38,405 nt of DNA from a virus (lineage: Duplodnaviria > Heunggongvirae > Uroviricota > Caudoviricetes). Position 1 is the stretch's first letter; every line of letters begins with the position of its first letter. The notes beneath the pieces are model-generated. The model was not told where the DNA came from. It ran no database searches and worked only from the letters and a program-made list of their open reading frames with translations. Positions 1 to 6,057 of this stretch are shown here, one piece after another. Made by a program: the position numbers and the translations under genes. The stretch lies in the IMG/VR virus record IMGVR_UViG_2639762960_000007, one strand, 5' to 3'.

Positions 1-642
1 TTATTTATTGGCTACTGCATCAATACTTAAACTTTCAACGGAGACACCTTTGGTTTCAATTCCAATGGTGGCGATAGCAATTGCGACAATAATTGAAACA
101 GCCCCCAGAAGAATAAAGACTCCCGTTACGCCATAACTACTGAGCAGCACTGCAACGGCATAAGGCGCGGCAATACCACTGATTCGCCCTACCGCATTCG
201 CCAGACCGGAGCCACGGAGTTTGGCCTCTGTTGGCCAGATCTCAGGGACATACACTGCCGAGGCATAGCAAACGTACATATAGACGAAAGTAATCAGGAA
301 GAAACCAATCAGCGTTATGAGCAACATACTGGTTTGCAGTGAATAGATATATCCGAGCACCGCAATCAGGATTAATAGCCCCATCCCCATTGTTTTACGC
401 GGAATTTTATCCATCACCAGCATGGCAATAAAAATACCAAATGGCGCGCCAAACATACTCATGGTATTTAAAACAATCGAGTCTTTTAAATTAATTCCCT
501 GGGTCATGAATATCGTTGGCAACCAGTTAATTAGTGTGTACTGCACAACGTTCATGGCAATCAGCACACAAGAGCCTAATATCACGCGTTTCAGTGATGC
601 GCCGCGCGATAAATGCACTCTATCTTGTGCGATAAATGGCAT
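1..642 (-). CDS. MFS-family transporter, C-terminal half only (5'-truncated; probably a host gene interrupted by the prophage)
   Basis: Stop TAA at 1..3 (tta on plus strand). The 213-aa translation is about six hydrophobic helices, typical of the second half of a 12-TM MFS permease. An in-frame stop lies a few codons upstream of the first Met, so the N-terminal half is absent here. Confidence 0.6.
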   Translation of the reverse strand: MPFIAQDRVHLSRGASLKRVILGSCVLIAMNVVQYTLINWLPTIFMTQGINLKDSIVLNTMSMFGAPFGIFIAMLVMDKIPRKTMGMGLLILIAVLGYIYSLQTSMLLITLIGFFLITFVYMYVCYASAVYVPEIWPTEAKLRGSGLANAVGRISGIAAPYAVAVLLSSYGVTGVFILLGAVSIIVAIAIATIGIETKGVSVESLSIDAVANK

Positions 643-672
643 CCACGCGGCGTTTCATTATTTGAAAAAGAA

Positions 673-1245
673 TTACATTTCAGGTTGCGTTATGACAGTC
701 CCAACAGGGTGATAGCGGTAGATCGTTGACAGTCCAATATCATAGATAATTGCCAGCCGCTTTCTGTCATACCCTTTCTGGAGCAATCTTGCGATCTGCT
801 CATGCTGCTCCTTCGTCAGTTTCGGGCGACGTCCTCCAACTCTTCCTTGTGCTCGCGCAGCAGCCAGTCCTGCCAGCGTGCGCTCAACTATCAGTTCACG
901 CTCCATTTCTGCCAGTGCACCCATCATATGAAAAAAGAACCTTCCCATCGGAGTGCTGGTATCGATTGAATCCGTCAGACTGCGAAAATTGACACCTTTT
1001 GCGCGTAGCTCTTCTGTGAGAGCAATGAGGTGTTTCATTCTTCTACCCAACCGATCCAGCTTCCAGACCACCAATGTATCCCCTCTTTTAAGGCACTTTA
1101 AAGCGCGTTTCAGGCCTGGTCGTTCCGACTTGGTTCCGCTCATTTTGTCCTCAAAAATCTGTTCACATCCTGCGCACATTAATGCATTGCGTTGCAAATC
1201 TGTGTTTTGGTCATTTGTTGACACACGTATGTAGCCAATCAGCAT
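673..1245 (-). CDS. gin: Serine-recombinase DNA invertase (Gin/Pin/Hin/Cin family)
   Basis: ATG at 1243..1245 gives 190 aa starting MLIGYIRVSTNDQ (catalytic Ser motif) with a C-terminal HTH (RKRLAIIYDIGLSTIYRY). The longer track ORF starts at a non-ATG codon upstream. It lies next to the tail-fibre inverted repeats. Confidence 0.9.
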   Translation of the reverse strand: MLIGYIRVSTNDQNTDLQRNALMCAGCEQIFEDKMSGTKSERPGLKRALKCLKRGDTLVVWKLDRLGRRMKHLIALTEELRAKGVNFRSLTDSIDTSTPMGRFFFHMMGALAEMERELIVERTLAGLAAARAQGRVGGRRPKLTKEQHEQIARLLQKGYDRKRLAIIYDIGLSTIYRYHPVGTVITQPEM

Positions 1246-1311
1246 TAAAAATACTCCCTTTTGAGTGGTTAAAGTACTGAGATAATGTGGGGAGGATTTG
1301 AGAGATAAACG

Positions 1312-1510
1312 TTGGTTTGGGGGAAGGCTCTGCATTGCCTGTTGGTGTACCGGTTCCATGGCCCACCGCCACACCGCCAGCAGGCTGGTTAAAGTGCGAC
1401 GGGCGCGCCTTTACAAAAGAACAATATCCTGTTCTGGCCAGAGTCTACCCGACCCTCCGTCTTCCTGATTTACGCGGTGAGTTTATCCGTGGATGGGACG
1501 ACGGGCGCAA
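1312..1510 (+). repeat. Left arm of a ~199-bp inverted repeat flanking the invertible tail-fibre segment
   Basis: Sequence from ttggtttgggggaaggctctgcattgcc to gggacgacgggcgcaa matches the reverse complement of about 2730..2928; verified by eye over the ends and several internal blocks. Confidence 0.85.
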
Positions 1511-1829
1511 AGTTGATACAGGACGTAAGTTGCTGTCCGCACAAGGGGCAACGCTGTTAAGAACAGCAATGCTGGATTATTATAACCAGGACACTACGGG
1601 AACCTCGGGGATAGTCGGCATGGGATTCAACAATGAAGATTCCATTACAGACCTTCGTGAGGGCAGCTTTAAAATGCCGGACGGGACAACATTCAGCGAT
1701 CCTGTCATGGCAATGTCAGACAATGGTATGCAGGCTACTATTCTGACCTCTATCAGAAGCGGGTATGCGAAGGGTATCACTGTCAGACCCCGTAGCATTG
1801 CACTTAATTACATTGTGAGGGCAGTTTAA
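1317..1829 (+). other. Silent alternative tail-fibre C-terminal cassette (Sv'-like); no ATG, would be fused to the fibre gene after inversion
   Basis: Frame opens at TTG inside the inverted repeat. The first ~63 aa are identical to an internal stretch of the fibre (GEGSALPVGVPVPWPTATPPAGWLKCDGRAF...GWDDGRK), followed by a divergent 106-aa tail ending NYIVRAV (the expressed copy ends NYIVRAA). Confidence 0.7.
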
Positions 1830-2443
1830 TGAGTAACACTGCAGTTCTGGATGAAAACGGTATCGCCACTGTAGCGGGCGATATCACTGTATATCACTAT
1901 GACGAGGAAACCCGGGAATACACCTCATCCTCTGTGGAGTATCTCGCCCTTGGGGTGGGTACTCCGGCACATTCGTGCGCCGATGCACCGCCGGAGGCAA
2001 TTTCGGGTTACGTGGTTTGTCGGACTGCCACGCTGAACGGGTGGGAGCATGTGCCTGATCACCGCGGCGAGACGGTATACAGCACGGAGAACGGTAACCC
2101 CGTTCTGATTACCCAACCGGGTGATTACCCGGCGGACACCACCACAAAACAGCCGGCCACGCCATGGGATACCTGGAACGGTGAGGCGTGGGTAACCGAT
2201 ACTGAACGGCAGCGAGCCGCAGAACTGGAGGTTGCCAGACAGCAACGCCAGCAACGGGTGAAACAGGCGATGGCGTCCGTCGATCTTATCAACCTCAAAC
2301 TGCGGGCAGGTCGCAGTCTGACACCAGAAGAAACGGCAAAACTGAACGCCGTGCTGGATTATATCGACGAGCTGAACGCACTGGATATCAGCACGGCACC
2401 TGAAATCAGCTGGCCGGAAGCGCCACTGGCACTTGCCAGCTGA
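1829..2443 (+). CDS. Tail fibre assembly (chaperone) protein, Tfa / Mu U-like
   Basis: ATG at 1829 overlaps the TAA of the upstream cassette, with GAGG upstream. 204 aa with the typical Tfa C-terminal region (AKLNAVLDYIDELNALDISTAPEISWPEAP). Confidence 0.75.
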   Translation: MSNTAVLDENGIATVAGDITVYHYDEETREYTSSSVEYLALGVGTPAHSCADAPPEAISGYVVCRTATLNGWEHVPDHRGETVYSTENGNPVLITQPGDYPADTTTKQPATPWDTWNGEAWVTDTERQRAAELEVARQQRQQRVKQAMASVDLINLKLRAGRSLTPEETAKLNAVLDYIDELNALDISTAPEISWPEAPLALAS

Positions 2444-2449
2444 ACGGTA

Positions 2450-4042
2450 TCACGCCGCCCTCACGATATAGTTAAACGCGATATTGCGGGGGCGGGTTAT
2501 GTTAAAGAATGCTCCGTTTAATTCGGCTTTTGCGCGACTGTTTGTTCCACCCAGAATTGCGTACCACAAATAATCGCTACGGTAATTCCCCGCAAACACC
2601 TTATCGCCGCCATAGTCAATATTATTTCCGTTACTCATGTACGAGATATCCAGCGAAGAATCGTTATCGTCATGACCGCCGACCAGTGTACCTTTCTGCC
2701 ATGAAAGCAACTTACGCCCCTCGTCAATCTTGCGCCCGTCGTCCCATCCACGGATAAACTCACCGCGTAAATCAGGAAGACGGAGGGTCGGGTAGACTCT
2801 GGCCAGAACAGGATATTGTTCTTTTGTAAAGGCGCGCCCGTCGCACTTTAACCAGCCTGCTGGCGGTGTGGCGGTGGGCCATGGAACCGGTACACCAACA
2901 GGCAATGCAGAGCCTTCCCCCAAACCAAGGTAATTGAGGACATCTTTTATACTGCCCTTAGCGATAATCGCGCGACCAATAGCTGTAAGGGTTGCCAGCG
3001 CTGCGCGGTCTGCTCCGGTAAAATAAGGCAACCGATCTGCTGCAGTGGCAAGTCCTGCGAGAGCAGTGAGCGTGGCATCTGCCGGTTGTTTTCCGTTTGC
3101 CAGATCGTATGCAGCCTTGACCGCTTTCGGTGTGGCGGCCAGTATTTCAGACGTGCTGTTGATGGCACTGCTCAGTTGTACGGTGCCTTTTGCCGTCAGC
3201 GAGGCAGCAGGCACTCCCGTTATCTGACTCCACGGGTGAGTGTGGCTGACGGGCGCCTTGCCGGCTGCAAGGTCGTATGCAGCCTTGACCGCCTTCGGCG
3301 TGGCAGCCTCAGTTTCTGATTGACTGTCCGTGGCGCTGCTCAGTTGTACGGTGCCTTTTGCCGTCAGTGAAGCCGCAGGCACTCCCGTTATCTGACTCCA
3401 CGGGTGAGTGTGGCTGGCAGGCGCCTTGCCGGCTGCCAGGTCGTATGCAGCCTTGACCGCTTTCGGTGTGGCGGCCAGCGTTTCAGACGTGCTGTTGATG
3501 GCACTGCTCAGTTGTACGATCCCTTTACGGGTCGTTGTTGCATCCTGGGCTGTGTATTTTCCCCGGGCCAGATCATACGCGATTTTCACAGCCTTCGGCG
3601 TGGCAGCCTCAGTTTCTGATTGACTGTCCGTGGCGCTGCTCAGTTGTACGGTGCCTTTTGCCGTCAGTGAAGCCGCAGGCACTCCCGTTATCTGACTCCA
3701 CGGGTGAGTGTGGCTGGCAGGCGCCTTGCCGGCTGCCAGGTCGTATGCAGCCTTGACCGCTTTTGGTGTGGCGGCCAGCGTTTCAGAGGTGCTGTTGGTG
3801 GCACTGCTCAGTTGGGTGAACCCCTTAGCTGTCAGTGTCGCGTCCGGGTGGTTACGGGAACGTACGTGTTCAGCCAGTGACTGTGCGGCTTCCTCCGTTT
3901 TCTTCTTCAGCCATTTCGTCCTGTTTGCCAGTTGCCGGGGGGCTCGATTTGATATCCCGTCTGCACCACCCAGAACCGGATCTGATGTCTCCAGTTGATA
4001 GATATTTTCTTCCCACTTTTCTGTTTCATTCAGGTTTCCCAT
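2450..4042 (-). CDS. Tail fibre protein with tandem phage-fibre repeats; C-terminal ~93 aa lie inside the invertible segment
   Basis: ATG at 4040..4042 (the track start at 4048 is TTG); the upstream gene's TGA sits at 4045..4047. Repeated SHTHPWSQITGVPAASLTAKGTVQLSSAT..ATPKAVKAAYDLA units are fibre-repeat-like. Lies directly downstream of the baseplate J/I genes. Confidence 0.85.
   Translation of the reverse strand: MGNLNETEKWEENIYQLETSDPVLGGADGISNRAPRQLANRTKWLKKKTEEAAQSLAEHVRSRNHPDATLTAKGFTQLSSATNSTSETLAATPKAVKAAYDLAAGKAPASHTHPWSQITGVPAASLTAKGTVQLSSATDSQSETEAATPKAVKIAYDLARGKYTAQDATTTRKGIVQLSSAINSTSETLAATPKAVKAAYDLAAGKAPASHTHPWSQITGVPAASLTAKGTVQLSSATDSQSETEAATPKAVKAAYDLAAGKAPVSHTHPWSQITGVPAASLTAKGTVQLSSAINSTSEILAATPKAVKAAYDLANGKQPADATLTALAGLATAADRLPYFTGADRAALATLTAIGRAIIAKGSIKDVLNYLGLGEGSALPVGVPVPWPTATPPAGWLKCDGRAFTKEQYPVLARVYPTLRLPDLRGEFIRGWDDGRKIDEGRKLLSWQKGTLVGGHDDNDSSLDISYMSNGNNIDYGGDKVFAGNYRSDYLWYAILGGTNSRAKAELNGAFFNITRPRNIAFNYIVRAA
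2730..2928 (-). repeat. Right arm of the ~199-bp inverted repeat (inside the tail-fibre coding sequence)
   Basis: Reverse complement matches 1312..1510. Confidence 0.85.
3050..3870 (-). repeat. Tandem near-identical coding repeats inside the tail-fibre gene
   Basis: Blocks such as ccgtcagtgaagccgcaggcactcccgttatctgactccacgggtgagtgtggctggcag recur at about 3361 and 3661 (300 bp apart), with a related copy near 3210. Confidence 0.8.
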
Positions 4043-4044
4043 AA

Positions 4045-4623
4045 TCAACTGCTCCCGTGGTTATAACTGCCATCATGGATGGCGGTATTGTTATAGCGAA
4101 TGGCCACAGACTGATACTCCAGGCTGGCCAGATGGCAGCGGGCCGGTGCAAATGCAGCCAGCGTCTGACGCAGCATCGCGGCCTGATCGTTAGTAATGGG
4201 CTGTTTCAGAATAACGCGATAAACTGCCCAGGCGGCTGCATCTCCATGAACAAACAGTCCGTTATAGCTGCGATTGCCGTCGTAACTGAGACGACCTGTG
4301 CCTTCAATCAGATCCACTTCACCAAAGCCAAAACGGCGGATAACTTCCCGGATTGACCACGGCGTCCCTTTATACCGGTGCAGTTCGATGGCTGCTTTTA
4401 TAAGCATGCGGCGAACATCGTCCGATTCCGCCAGCTCCCAGCCATCGCCAGACAGTGAGAACTGCTCGCCCAGCCATGGCAGCGCGGAACTGTCGACGAT
4501 ATCGACGAGAAAGACCATCAGTACGCTCAGGTCGATGTTATCCAGCCGTCCTGCCAGTCTTCCCAGCGTCCTGAGACTGATATCACCCTCAAGCGGTGGC
4601 GGGAGTTGTAATGGCTCAGTCAT
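4045..4623 (-). CDS. Baseplate protein, P2 gpI-like
   Basis: ATG at 4621..4623 (track start at 4635 is GTG). Placed between the J-like gene and the fibre gene; translationally coupled to both neighbours. Confidence 0.65.
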   Translation of the reverse strand: MTEPLQLPPPLEGDISLRTLGRLAGRLDNIDLSVLMVFLVDIVDSSALPWLGEQFSLSGDGWELAESDDVRRMLIKAAIELHRYKGTPWSIREVIRRFGFGEVDLIEGTGRLSYDGNRSYNGLFVHGDAAAWAVYRVILKQPITNDQAAMLRQTLAAFAPARCHLASLEYQSVAIRYNNTAIHDGSYNHGSS

Positions 4624-5719
4624 CAGACACTCCACTCATGTTAAGTGTGATCGCCGTACAGTTTGCCCATTCGTTTTCTGCCACCACCCTCAGTGCCGGT
4701 GTCACCAGTTCAACCTGGTACACCCCGGAAACGGACAATGCACTGATAATCTGGCTGGGGACAATATCACGCCCCAGCGTGGCGGCACGTGATGCCACCC
4801 AGTTCTGTATGGCGCTGTTAGCGGCATCTTTTACAGACCTGGCATCCTGATCACGATAGATCGTAATCCTGGCTTCAATGGTGTAATCCACCTTCACTGG
4901 TGTTTTAGCCCGCACTGTATCAGTGAGTGGCCTGACTTTCTCATCAGAGCAGAAACTCTCTACCAGCGTGAGAACACCGCCGTCCGGCAGACCGGTACTG
5001 AGCAGCGGATACAGATCTACGGTCCCGGGAACCGGGGAAAGCACAGCAACATCGACAATGTTGGGATGGGCCTGCATGGCATGAAAGCGGTATGCGCCAC
5101 GGCTTCCGGCATTGGTGAATGACTCCGGGGCCAGCCTGATACGCTCCCGGAGCCTGTCATCGTCTTCCTGTTCTGAACCGCCGGAACTGGCCGTCAGATT
5201 GCTCACCAGCAGGTCGACGTTATCAATCTCATCGAGTAACTGACTGACCTGCGCAGGTTGCCAGCCGTTACCAGCGGTACCGGGTTCGGTACAGGTGGAC
5301 GTGACATTGACCAGCAGCAATCCGGCCTTCAGTACCACATCTGTATCGGTGGCAAAAATAACGCTGTCGGAAGCGCTGACGCGGGTGCCTGCCGGGATCA
5401 GCACATCAATGGCCAGTGCCTCATCTACGGAGAACTGGAGCGTGGTAGTGGCAGGCTGCGCGGCAAGACGGTATACACCGACCAGTTCACCGAGGTAATC
5501 AATCATCGGCTCACGGGCAAAGGCGACCAGATTCTGCTTTGCTGCCTCCTGTACCGCAACCCTGACCAGCATTTCGCGATAGGCCCACAGATCAATCAGC
5601 AGACGCTCTGCCTGTGCCGGGTACAGCGTTTTGCCGGTATCCGCTTCATACTTCGCAATCATTTCTGCCGTGATTTTGTCGGCATCGCGTTCAATAAAAT
5701 CGGGTTCTGTCAGCGCCAT
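4616..5719 (-). CDS. Baseplate wedge protein, P2 gpJ-like
   Basis: 367 aa; ATG at 5717..5719; order W-J-I-fibre as in P2-type baseplates. Confidence 0.8.
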   Translation of the reverse strand: MALTEPDFIERDADKITAEMIAKYEADTGKTLYPAQAERLLIDLWAYREMLVRVAVQEAAKQNLVAFAREPMIDYLGELVGVYRLAAQPATTTLQFSVDEALAIDVLIPAGTRVSASDSVIFATDTDVVLKAGLLLVNVTSTCTEPGTAGNGWQPAQVSQLLDEIDNVDLLVSNLTASSGGSEQEDDDRLRERIRLAPESFTNAGSRGAYRFHAMQAHPNIVDVAVLSPVPGTVDLYPLLSTGLPDGGVLTLVESFCSDEKVRPLTDTVRAKTPVKVDYTIEARITIYRDQDARSVKDAANSAIQNWVASRAATLGRDIVPSQIISALSVSGVYQVELVTPALRVVAENEWANCTAITLNMSGVSDD

Positions 5720-6057
5720 AGCAGCTCCTGAGTCCGGGTCTGTCCGTCTGAGCCTTTCCAGCTCACCCGGAGCGTAAGATGTTCGCCGTCGACGGCGGGT
5801 TTAACTGACATAAGCTGGCAGCGGGGCTCCCAGCGCCGGATGGCATCGACGGATTCGCGAACCACATGCGGAATGGCCCGGTCGACAGGCCAGTCGATAT
5901 AAAGGTGCAGATTGCTGCCGAACTCCGGGCGATGCGGGTCGCTGCCGCGGGGAGTCCGCAGGATGATTTGGATGGACTGCCGGATATCATCCAGCCCCCT
6001 GACGATTTCGCCGGAAGCCTGCAGAGCTGGTTGCCAGAATACTGAGGTCGTTTTCAT
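5710..6057 (-). CDS. Baseplate protein, P2 gpW / T4 gp25-like
   Basis: 115 aa; ATG at 6055..6057; position between V-like and J-like genes. Confidence 0.75.
   Translation of the reverse strand: MKTTSVFWQPALQASGEIVRGLDDIRQSIQIILRTPRGSDPHRPEFGSNLHLYIDWPVDRAIPHVVRESVDAIRRWEPRCQLMSVKPAVDGEHLTLRVSWKGSDGQTRTQELLWR

Follow-up and report, generated by a model that had tools for sequence, protein, structure and literature searches.

A minimal two-site Min-type tail-fibre inversion system with a single chaperone gene in a transposable BcepMu-like prophage of Escherichia coli

The prophage and its tail-fibre locus

The window analysed here, that is, the whole stretch of 38,405 nucleotides, carries what is, judging from its gene content, a transposable BcepMu-like prophage in E. 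coli: it has Pfam matches to the transposition genes rve (DDE transposase) and AAA_22 (AAA+ partner), its tail genes are of the P2 type, and its insertion sites are varied, with host flanks that differ across 15 loci. One prophage end lies at about position 595, no right end was found within the window, and the nearest phage record is PhiKM, classed as Bcepmuvirus. The P2-type baseplate genes I, J and W (4045..6057, minus strand; Pfam Tail_P2_I and Baseplate_J, RefSeq) are located upstream of the tail-fibre gene and run in the same operon direction.

The whole tail-fibre gene occupies 2450-4042 on the minus strand according to the RefSeq (PGAP) annotation of strain N61, in which the locus is identical, and the longest fibre ORF extends over 2450-4048 (532 aa). 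The gene contains a constant part with Phage_fiber_2 repeats (2929..4042, minus strand; Pfam, RefSeq) and a C-terminal tip, named B, whose variable part is placed by the ORF map at 2450..2729 on the same strand and is the one now expressed. A silent tip cassette, A, lies on the plus strand at 1314..1829 (171 codons counted from the crossover site; ORF 1317-1829), as delimited by ORFs and by sister loci, with its variable part at 1511-1829. Tips A and B have the collar and the last ~14 residues in common and differ in an inserted part of 60-80 residues. They are homologous to the T4 gp37 tip (PDB 2xgf, E=2e-15), the match covering both the collar and the C-terminal NIAFNYIVR strand, and on this homology they are small relatives of it. 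The inserted part is probably the receptor-binding portion, and tips A and B would then differ in host range.

The sole tail-fibre assembly protein gene, TfaE-like and encoding 204 aa, is found at 1829..2443 on the plus strand (Caudo_TAP, PF02413, E=3.5e-28, 98.8 bits against a curated cut-off of 22.1). Its ATG overlaps the stop codon of tip A (TAATG), and by this overlap the gene is, as far as the reading frames tell, translationally coupled to tip A. The protein is 59% identical to TfaE of e14 and 57-59% identical to the chaperones of the P1-like and EPEC systems; a comparison of its sequence with solved structures gave no match. Tip B and the chaperone gene are convergent, with stop codons 6 bp apart, and past the expressed tip the minus strand is the antisense of the chaperone gene and holds no chaperone-like gene. 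The preliminary description, in which a lone chaperone gene stands behind the silent tip only, was therefore accurate on this point. A concealed second chaperone on the minus strand within 1829-2443 was considered and rejected, only Arg/Cys-rich antisense ORFs being present.

A Din-family serine DNA invertase of 190 aa is encoded at 673..1245 on the minus strand and is transcribed away from the invertible segment. It contains Pfam Resolvase (E=8e-51) and HTH_7 (1e-12) domains, matches the Mu Gin structures 4m6f and 3uj3 (E=2e-93), and is 77% identical to Mu Gin, 76% to e14 Pin, 84% to Min of a P1-like plasmid and 86% to the invertase of the EPEC P2-like prophage. The segment had been called Gin-controlled, a label that does not hold in the strict sense, since the recombinase shares more identity with Min-like enzymes (84-86%) than with Gin (77%) and the sites have an AA rather than a GA core. 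Over 27,000 indexed blocks of the contig collection contain this exact protein, and it is the enzyme that would catalyse the inversion.

In Din systems a Fis-dependent recombinational enhancer acts in cis from within the 5' portion of the invertase gene. When 17 such genes are compared, their synonymous-codon entropy is minimal at codons 1-30 (0.38-0.56, against 0.6-0.75 over most codons) and drops again across the last ~15 codons. The first 210 nt of the gene show 73-83% DNA identity to Mu gin, and no Fis sites were identified.

Inverted repeat and crossover sites

The arms of the segment form an inverted repeat which a repeat search delimits as 229 nt at 96% identity (1309-1537 and 2703-2931), while, when the arms are compared directly, 1312-1510 and 2730-2928 agree over all 199 nt, and this perfect core lies just where the preliminary description had put it. 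The runner-up among inverted repeats of the first 5 kb is only 24 nt long at 71%, so the 199-bp repeat is far above chance. The left arm is the collar-coding part of a tip (Pfam Collar), and the tail-fibre coding frame is continuous with both arms, whose common peptide, GLGEG...WDDGRK, amounts on translation to 65-66 residues and not to the 63 first counted. Arm identity within the window is 100%, yet the same region is highly polymorphic among strains (pS 0.12-0.42), so that homologous exchange or gene conversion evidently acts here. The long repeat would be dispensable for the enzyme; it is the collar-coding sequence common to the tips, presumably kept identical via gene conversion.

Two 26-bp sites (12-2-12) sit on the outer repeat edges in inverted orientation, share an identical AA centre and fit TTC---AAAC- -A -GTTT---GAA. 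The invertase-proximal site, assigned by its fit to the Din consensus, lies at 1300..1325 (outer half 1300-1311, core 1312-1313, inner half 1314-1325), reads TTCCCCCAAACC-AA-CGTTTATCTCTC on the minus strand and resembles pixR and mixMI''L' among the Din, mix, pix and gix site sequences available for comparison (Table 3, PMC3241671). The fibre-side site, TTCCCCCAAACC-AA-GGTAATTGAGGA at 2915..2940, was assigned by its match to mixQ''R' of p15B (TTCCCCCAAACC AA GGTAATCAAGAA), with 22 of 26 positions identical (PMC3241671). The pix sites of e14 are also similar to those of the window, pixR being TTCTCCCAAACC AA CGTTTATGAAAA, and the AA core dinucleotide is that of mix and pix, whereas gix has GA (PMC3241671). 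GGTTTGGGGGAA is found at 1314-1325 and its complement at 2915-2926, and TTCCCCCAAACCAA has two matches in the 38 kb window, both of them these half-sites. The resemblance to Gin/Hin half-sites noticed earlier at the outer edges (about 1314 and 2926) can thus be made more precise, the comparison with Table 3 of PMC3241671 identifying them as genuine Din-family crossover half-sites.

In sister loci the outer half-site is constant and the inner half relocates together with its cassette; where sister prophages have middle sites, these match mixN''O' and mixO''P' of p15B. A variant, GGTTTAGGAGAA, 6-9 bp off the core, accompanies cassette A to fibre-side, middle and invertase-side positions, and since the outer half-sites do not follow it on these moves, the crossover is placed at the centre of the site. 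This bears on the alternative that RecA-dependent homologous recombination at the 199-229 bp repeats, and not the invertase, makes the flips. The repeats are long enough for RecA, and arms that stay identical despite polymorphism among strains do imply homologous exchange or gene conversion, but crossovers of that kind would be spread over 199 bp and not confined to the core, as they are when the variant inside the repeat always follows the cassette and the flanks remain fixed. Moreover, every locus has kept an intact Gin-like invertase and canonical sites next to it, and the middle site of three-tip systems has an outer flank without homology. RecA as the author of the flips is thus very unlikely.

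Both orientations in nature and the proposed switch

When the segment is flipped in silico, tip A becomes the C-terminus of an intact fibre of 545 aa, which is then followed by the chaperone gene. The exchange of tip B for tip A with its chaperone, as proposed in the preliminary description, has natural counterparts: phage 503046, about 98% identical, has 1312-2931 of the window inverted, and among complete E. coli genomes tip A is fused to the fibre in 272 and tip B in 73. The alleles of the window themselves occur in the opposite orientation in another locus (L008), three loci with identical cassette alleles (L005, L009 and L014) represent between them each of the three states in which a three-tip set can be expressed, and in two others (L006 and L010) the entire region is flipped at the same chromosomal site. 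As read from such natural variants and population snapshots, the segment is one that inverts in nature. Decay is also seen among the relatives: the cassette of L011 is frameshifted, the fibre of L010 is truncated and H39-H42 have no invertase.

The locus is very probably an invertase-driven, programmed host-range switch of a transposable BcepMu-like prophage, built as a two-site Min/Pin-type system of the Din family. The invertase (673-1245) would bring together the sites at 1300-1325 and 2915-2940 and cut at the central AA/TT dinucleotide, upon which the intervening 1.6 kb would flip. In the orientation of the window, tip B would terminate the fibre and the chaperone gene would lie antisense to the late transcript; in the inverted state, tip A would terminate the fibre, with the TfaE-like chaperone next and translationally coupled. 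One could instead regard the locus as a frozen relic, with switch-like anatomy and no more inversion or phage production in this strain, given that the window shows one orientation only and that decayed relatives are known. Such a relic is hardly to be expected, however, where the invertase, the two sites, the two tips and the chaperone gene are all intact, the arms are perfectly identical and the same alleles are found oppositely oriented elsewhere, and we regard it as extremely improbable.

Relation to known inversion systems

The closest relatives of this arrangement are the Min-type systems, of which the window is a minimal two-site member, and for that class a single chaperone is normal. 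The invertase of a p15B-like plasmid shares 84% identity with that of the window. In Min of p15B, as in the window, tip cassettes are of the collar type, each running from a site to ...NYIVRAA, and the same layout, a tip-chaperone-tip segment with only a TfaE-like gene, is found in L016, in the EPEC locus L019, in L024 and in pMCR_SCKP-LL83. The p15B layout was judged from a plasmid like p15B and from an annotation table in the literature: the region of pMCR_SCKP-LL83 is 99% identical to p15B min and has a single annotated tfaE (PMC5786510). A p15B-like plasmid holds eight tips and one chaperone, and sister prophages hold three to six tips and one chaperone, with three sites in, for example, L003, L005 and L008, and six tips in L103. 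The multiple-inversion trait of Min, at least three crossover sites, is absent from the window, which has two sites, two tips and 2 isomers, in contrast to the 6-8 sites of p15B-like plasmids. The elements also differ, that of p15B being a P1-like plasmid and that of the window a transposable BcepMu-like prophage, and tips A and B are of types absent from L016.

Another close relative is the shufflon of the P2-like prophage of EPEC E2348/69, whose isomers coexist in clonal cultures, as seen by sequencing and PCR (Goldberg et al. 2014, PMC4272514). Its collar-coding repeats of ~215 bp are homologous to those of the window, its three tips are accompanied by one chaperone gene, and the two invertases are 86% identical. 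It differs in lying in a P2-like prophage, in having three sites, and in repeats that agree with one another at 92% rather than 100%. The chaperone count of this locus is not discussed in PMC4272514.

The G segment of Mu and the C segment of P1 share with the window the enzyme family, a constant fibre part with alternative C-termini, and an invertase gene that lies beside the segment and reads outward. In the P1 C segment, as here, the sites are at the outer edges of long repeats, while the repeats of Mu are only 34 bp. Mu has paired S-U and S'-U' units, so that each tip has its own chaperone, and P1 also has a paired tip-chaperone arrangement; the window has one Caudo_TAP gene, and Mu U shows no detectable similarity to its product. 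In the P/Pin system of e14, the stfE tip is of the collar type and is followed by TfaE, but there are two chaperone genes (tfaP and tfaE), and the second tip, StfP, is not collar-type. The departure from a paired layout that had been pointed out is therefore real with respect to Mu, e14 and P1, but it is standard for Min-type systems and is no oddity. Finally, in comparison with T4 gp37/gp38, the tips of the window are much smaller, B is without His-x-His needle repeats, and T4 has no inversion.

Does tip B need the chaperone?

With B and the chaperone gene fixed in convergent orientation and no site between them, the two would never be co-transcribed from the fibre promoter. On balance we favour the reading that tip B folds and works without the chaperone, and that tip A needs or carries it. 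When the variable regions were clustered after trimming (looser limits had merged all tips), some tip types never adjoined a chaperone gene, namely B (0/12), D (0/7) and E (0/6). Tips of type B are intact in 12 of 12 loci, and the dN/dS of the unique tip parts is 0.33 for B, 0.29 for C and 0.15 for E, the value for B being derived from few changes (23 synonymous and 27 nonsynonymous pairwise differences, summed). In a large protein database, B-type tips are restricted to E. coli and Salmonella Typhi and occupy chaperone-less positions every time, and no B tip in an independent context was found there. A Rahnella P2-like prophage has a fibre ending in a D-type, B-related tip, which shares 72% identity with the D tip of E. 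coli, within a gene order J-I-H-sheath-tube from which the chaperone gene is absent.

The alternative is that a single chaperone serves every tip, B included. TfaE-type proteins are conserved beside unrelated tip inserts, and because they are 57-59% identical next to quite different tips, the conserved collar, present in B as well, is suggested to be what they recognise. Identical tip types are, furthermore, found with and without a neighbouring chaperone gene: the YATEDHAHG type has an adjacent one in e14, L031 and L032 but not in L016 and L024, and the HTILDHAHY type, without one in L016, is accompanied by one in a Klebsiella phage. Across Enterobacterales, the chaperone gene is directly 3' of most stand-alone collar tips, and T4 gp37, homologous to the tips, depends on gp38 (PMC9608196).

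A shared chaperone would, in the B orientation, have to be made from an undetected invertase-side promoter that transcribes A together with the chaperone gene, or be supplied by TfaE-like genes of other resident prophages; if there were no such source, particles in the B orientation would be defective. An orientation-independent promoter for the chaperone gene was sought in two ways, which are not decisive: a consensus scan, a weak test, gave no sigma-70-like promoter on either strand over 600-4200, and the invertase-to-site spacer, aligned across three phage families, had no clearly conserved rightward promoter. A tip B that never worked should decay, which is at odds with its intactness and its dN/dS, and the P2-like prophages L030 and L042 have collar-tipped fibres without a chaperone gene. 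Taken together, these observations make a chaperone common to all tips rather unlikely.

To return to the favoured reading, in which B is independent of the chaperone, a further step may be ventured, though only tentatively: in Min-type switches the lone chaperone gene might itself be what is switched, with B, D and E as self-folding mini-gp37 domains, and with the TfaE-like partner of A possibly staying on the fibre as part of the adhesin. If this is true, relatives with at least three sites would vary the orientation of the chaperone segment independently of the fused tip, and host-range variation would gain a layer, with or without chaperone.

Significance

The value of the locus is practical and not conceptual, as it reveals no new kind of system. 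Tips B, D and E are candidate small, helper-free receptor-binding modules, which may be useful for phage or tailocin engineering, and simple genetics on the locus could tell whether TfaE-type proteins assist every collar tip as chaperones or are partners dedicated to certain tips. More generally, the locus would serve as a clean, minimal model, with just two states, of a kind of host-range switch very widespread in E. coli.

The invertible segment and its fibre tips

The tail-fibre gene (2450-4042, minus strand, as annotated in RefSeq for an identical locus) ends in the expressed C-terminus, tip B, while a plus-strand ORF at 1317-1829 encodes the silent one, tip A, and has the peptide GLGEGSALPVGVPVPWP...RGWDDGRK in common with it. 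A repeat search returned one long inverted repeat with arms at 1309-1537 and 2703-2931 (229 nt, 96% identity), and base-by-base comparison placed inside it a perfect 199-nt core, 1312-1510 against 2730-2928, beyond which the arms diverge abruptly; these core coordinates are exactly those of the preliminary description. Each arm is in-frame coding sequence, and the peptide that the two share, previously put at 63 aa, has 65-66 residues. After it come two different C-termini, one of 92 and one of 105 residues, with the common ending RPR(N/S)IA(F/L)NYIVRA(A/V). Pfam places a phage tail Collar domain in both tips, Phage_fiber_2 repeats in the fibre shaft, and P2-type I and J baseplate proteins upstream of the fibre.

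Four lines of evidence indicate that this segment inverts. The proposal that inversion swaps the expressed tip for the silent one is borne out: in-silico inversion of 1312-2928 gives an intact fibre of 545 aa that has tip A at its end, with the chaperone gene directly after it; the record of phage 503046 (CP025887.1, ~98% identical) has exactly 1312-2931 on the opposite strand; and, in junction-specific queries of 5,426 complete E. coli genomes, the constant part was joined to tip B in 73 genomes and to tip A in 272. Sister prophages with three tips carry A, B and C or A, D and E (C, D and E being further cassette types), and all three expression states were found among loci with identical cassette alleles (L005, L009 and L014). 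Two other loci, L006 and L010, share a chromosomal site and carry the entire region in opposite orientations.

The repeat-coded part (1312-1510 / 2730-2928) is 100% identical from arm to arm in the window, yet between strains its synonymous polymorphism (pS 0.12 for A, 0.42 for C) far exceeds that of the parts unique to each tip (0.004 and 0.078), a pattern suggestive of gene conversion inside loci and of mosaic cassettes from locus to locus. The shaft has three in-frame repeats at 3099-3848 (~300 nt each, 81-91% identical), and among sister prophages fibre length ranges from 277 to 779 aa, probably by gain and loss of repeat copies.

Invertase and crossover sites

The invertase (673-1245, minus strand) contains Resolvase and HTH_7 domains (Pfam) and matches solved Mu Gin structures with E=2e-93. 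Control by Gin had been suggested, and the enzyme is indeed Gin-like, but it is closer to Min-like invertases (84% identity for that of a P1-like plasmid, 86% for that of the EPEC P2-like prophage) than to Gin (77%) or e14 Pin (76%), and the core of its sites is AA, as in mix, pix and hix, whereas that of gix is GA (PMC3241671). Synonymous-codon variation reaches its lowest level in the first ~30 codons of 17 related invertase genes (1156-1245 in the window), a sequence pattern that could be compatible with a cis recombinational enhancer.

The only crossover sites in the window are an invertase-side one, TTCCCCCAAACC-AA-CGTTTATCTCTC, at 1300-1325 (minus strand) and a fibre-side one, TTCCCCCAAACC-AA-GGTAATTGAGGA, at 2915-2940. 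The half-sites at the outer repeat edges, earlier likened to those of Gin/Hin, match Din-family sites tabulated in Table 3 of PMC3241671: the fibre-side site is almost the same as p15B mixQ''R' (…AA GGTAATCAAGAA), the invertase-side site is similar to pixR and mixMI''L', and the middle site of three-tip relatives (…AA CGTTTTTATGCG) to mixN''O' and mixO''P'. Every cassette starts with TT-GGTTTGGGGGAA, and the 12-mer in front of it is specific to the position. Since GGTTTAGGAGAA, a variant of the inner half-site, goes with cassette A in every case, be the cassette at the fibre-side, middle or invertase-side position, and the outer half-sites never move among sister loci, crossovers occur within a few bp of the site core, which fits a serine invertase and not general recombination over 199 bp.

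The transposable prophage

An rve-type transposase and its AAA+ partner are encoded in the window too, the host flanks of sister loci are different in each strain (truncated flgA, a cysteine hydrolase gene, an Ail/Lom gene and others), and PhiKM, the closest phage record, is assigned to Bcepmuvirus. The element is therefore a BcepMu-like transposable prophage; its tail is P2-type, and the invertase lies at its very end. Identity to fifteen sister loci starts at 591-595, 78 bp past the invertase stop.

The prophage end lies at about 595, with TG... reading inward, and the second end is not in the window. The insertion interrupted an MFS transporter gene, whose C-terminal half is seen as the 213-aa 'ORF' at 1-642; the sites of sister prophages are in a different gene in every strain, as expected of a transposable phage. 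One strain (L010, 1-3424) has genes for a reverse transcriptase (RVT_1), a SLATT_5 protein and a tyrosine integrase in place of the 5' part of the fibre operon, an arrangement that looks like a defence-type island inserted in a prophage remnant. A contig of Moraxella osloensis whose invertase is 100% identical, and two of Vagococcus with enterobacterial-type fibre loci (L036, L043 and L057), are probably contaminants in their assemblies.

A single chaperone gene

The chaperone gene (1829-2443, plus strand; Pfam Caudo_TAP, E=3.5e-28) overlaps the silent-tip stop with its start codon (TAATG), and at its other end 6 bp separate its stop codon from that of the convergent expressed tip. The locus has no second chaperone gene. 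A terminator-like hairpin occurs on the minus strand at 2333-2352, ~100 nt past the stop codon of tip B and antisense to the chaperone gene, in a region where such hits are not above chance.

A single chaperone is not unusual for Min-type systems, whose layout the window has. All sister prophages examined have exactly one chaperone gene, with 2, 3 or 6 tips. The p15B-like P1 plasmid NZ_CP023961.1 combines 8 cassettes and canonical mix sites with one chaperone gene, in a tip-chaperone-tip segment laid out like 1312-2928, and pMCR_SCKP-LL83, with a region 99% identical to p15B min, also has one (tfaE; PMC5786510). The EPEC E2348/69 P2-like prophage has 3 tips and one chaperone gene; its isomers coexist in clonal cultures, as found by sequencing and PCR (Goldberg et al., PMC4272514), and its reported 215-bp repeats are homologous to those of the window (PMC4272514). 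Paired tip-chaperone layouts are found in Mu, e14, a Klebsiella P2-like phage, and some Erwinia and Xenorhabdus loci. The layout of P1 is paired, like that of Mu. The contrast with Mu drawn in the preliminary description thus stands, but the layout of the window is one known from Min-type systems. One locus of the same phage family (L103, E. coli GCA_016103345.1, 3915-8641) has six tip cassettes and one chaperone gene, so that tip number in the family ranges from 2 to 6.

Tip B without a co-transcribed chaperone

No site lies between tip B and the chaperone gene, so the two are permanently convergent and never co-transcribed from the fibre promoter. We somewhat favour a chaperone-independent tip B over a chaperone that is shared or supplied in trans. 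In a tip-chaperone census of 79 loci from different Enterobacterales species together with the E. coli loci, an adjacent chaperone gene was found for none of 12 B, 7 D, 6 E and 8 Photorhabdus/Xenorhabdus-type tips. The fibre of a Rahnella P2-like prophage ends in a D-type tip, within a J-I-H-sheath-tube gene order without a chaperone gene; this tip shares 72% identity with its E. coli D counterpart and is related to B through a 42% match of 36 residues within the first part of the insert. The same chaperone-free order recurs in a Pluralibacter prophage. The dN/dS values of the unique tip parts are 0.33 (B), 0.29 (C) and 0.15 (E). A shared or trans-supplied chaperone is a possible, rather doubtful, explanation, in favour of which a TfaE-type gene follows most stand-alone collar tips, some tip types have such a neighbour at some loci and lack it at others, and TfaE-type proteins are still 57-59% identical beside unrelated inserts. 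A weak test found no promoter from which the chaperone gene could be expressed in the orientation that the window shows.

The preliminary finding was accurate and the inversion mechanism is well supported. The locus adds one more member, a minimal one, to the Min/Pin-type tail-fibre inversion systems, and the prophage family that carries it is very common in E. coli.
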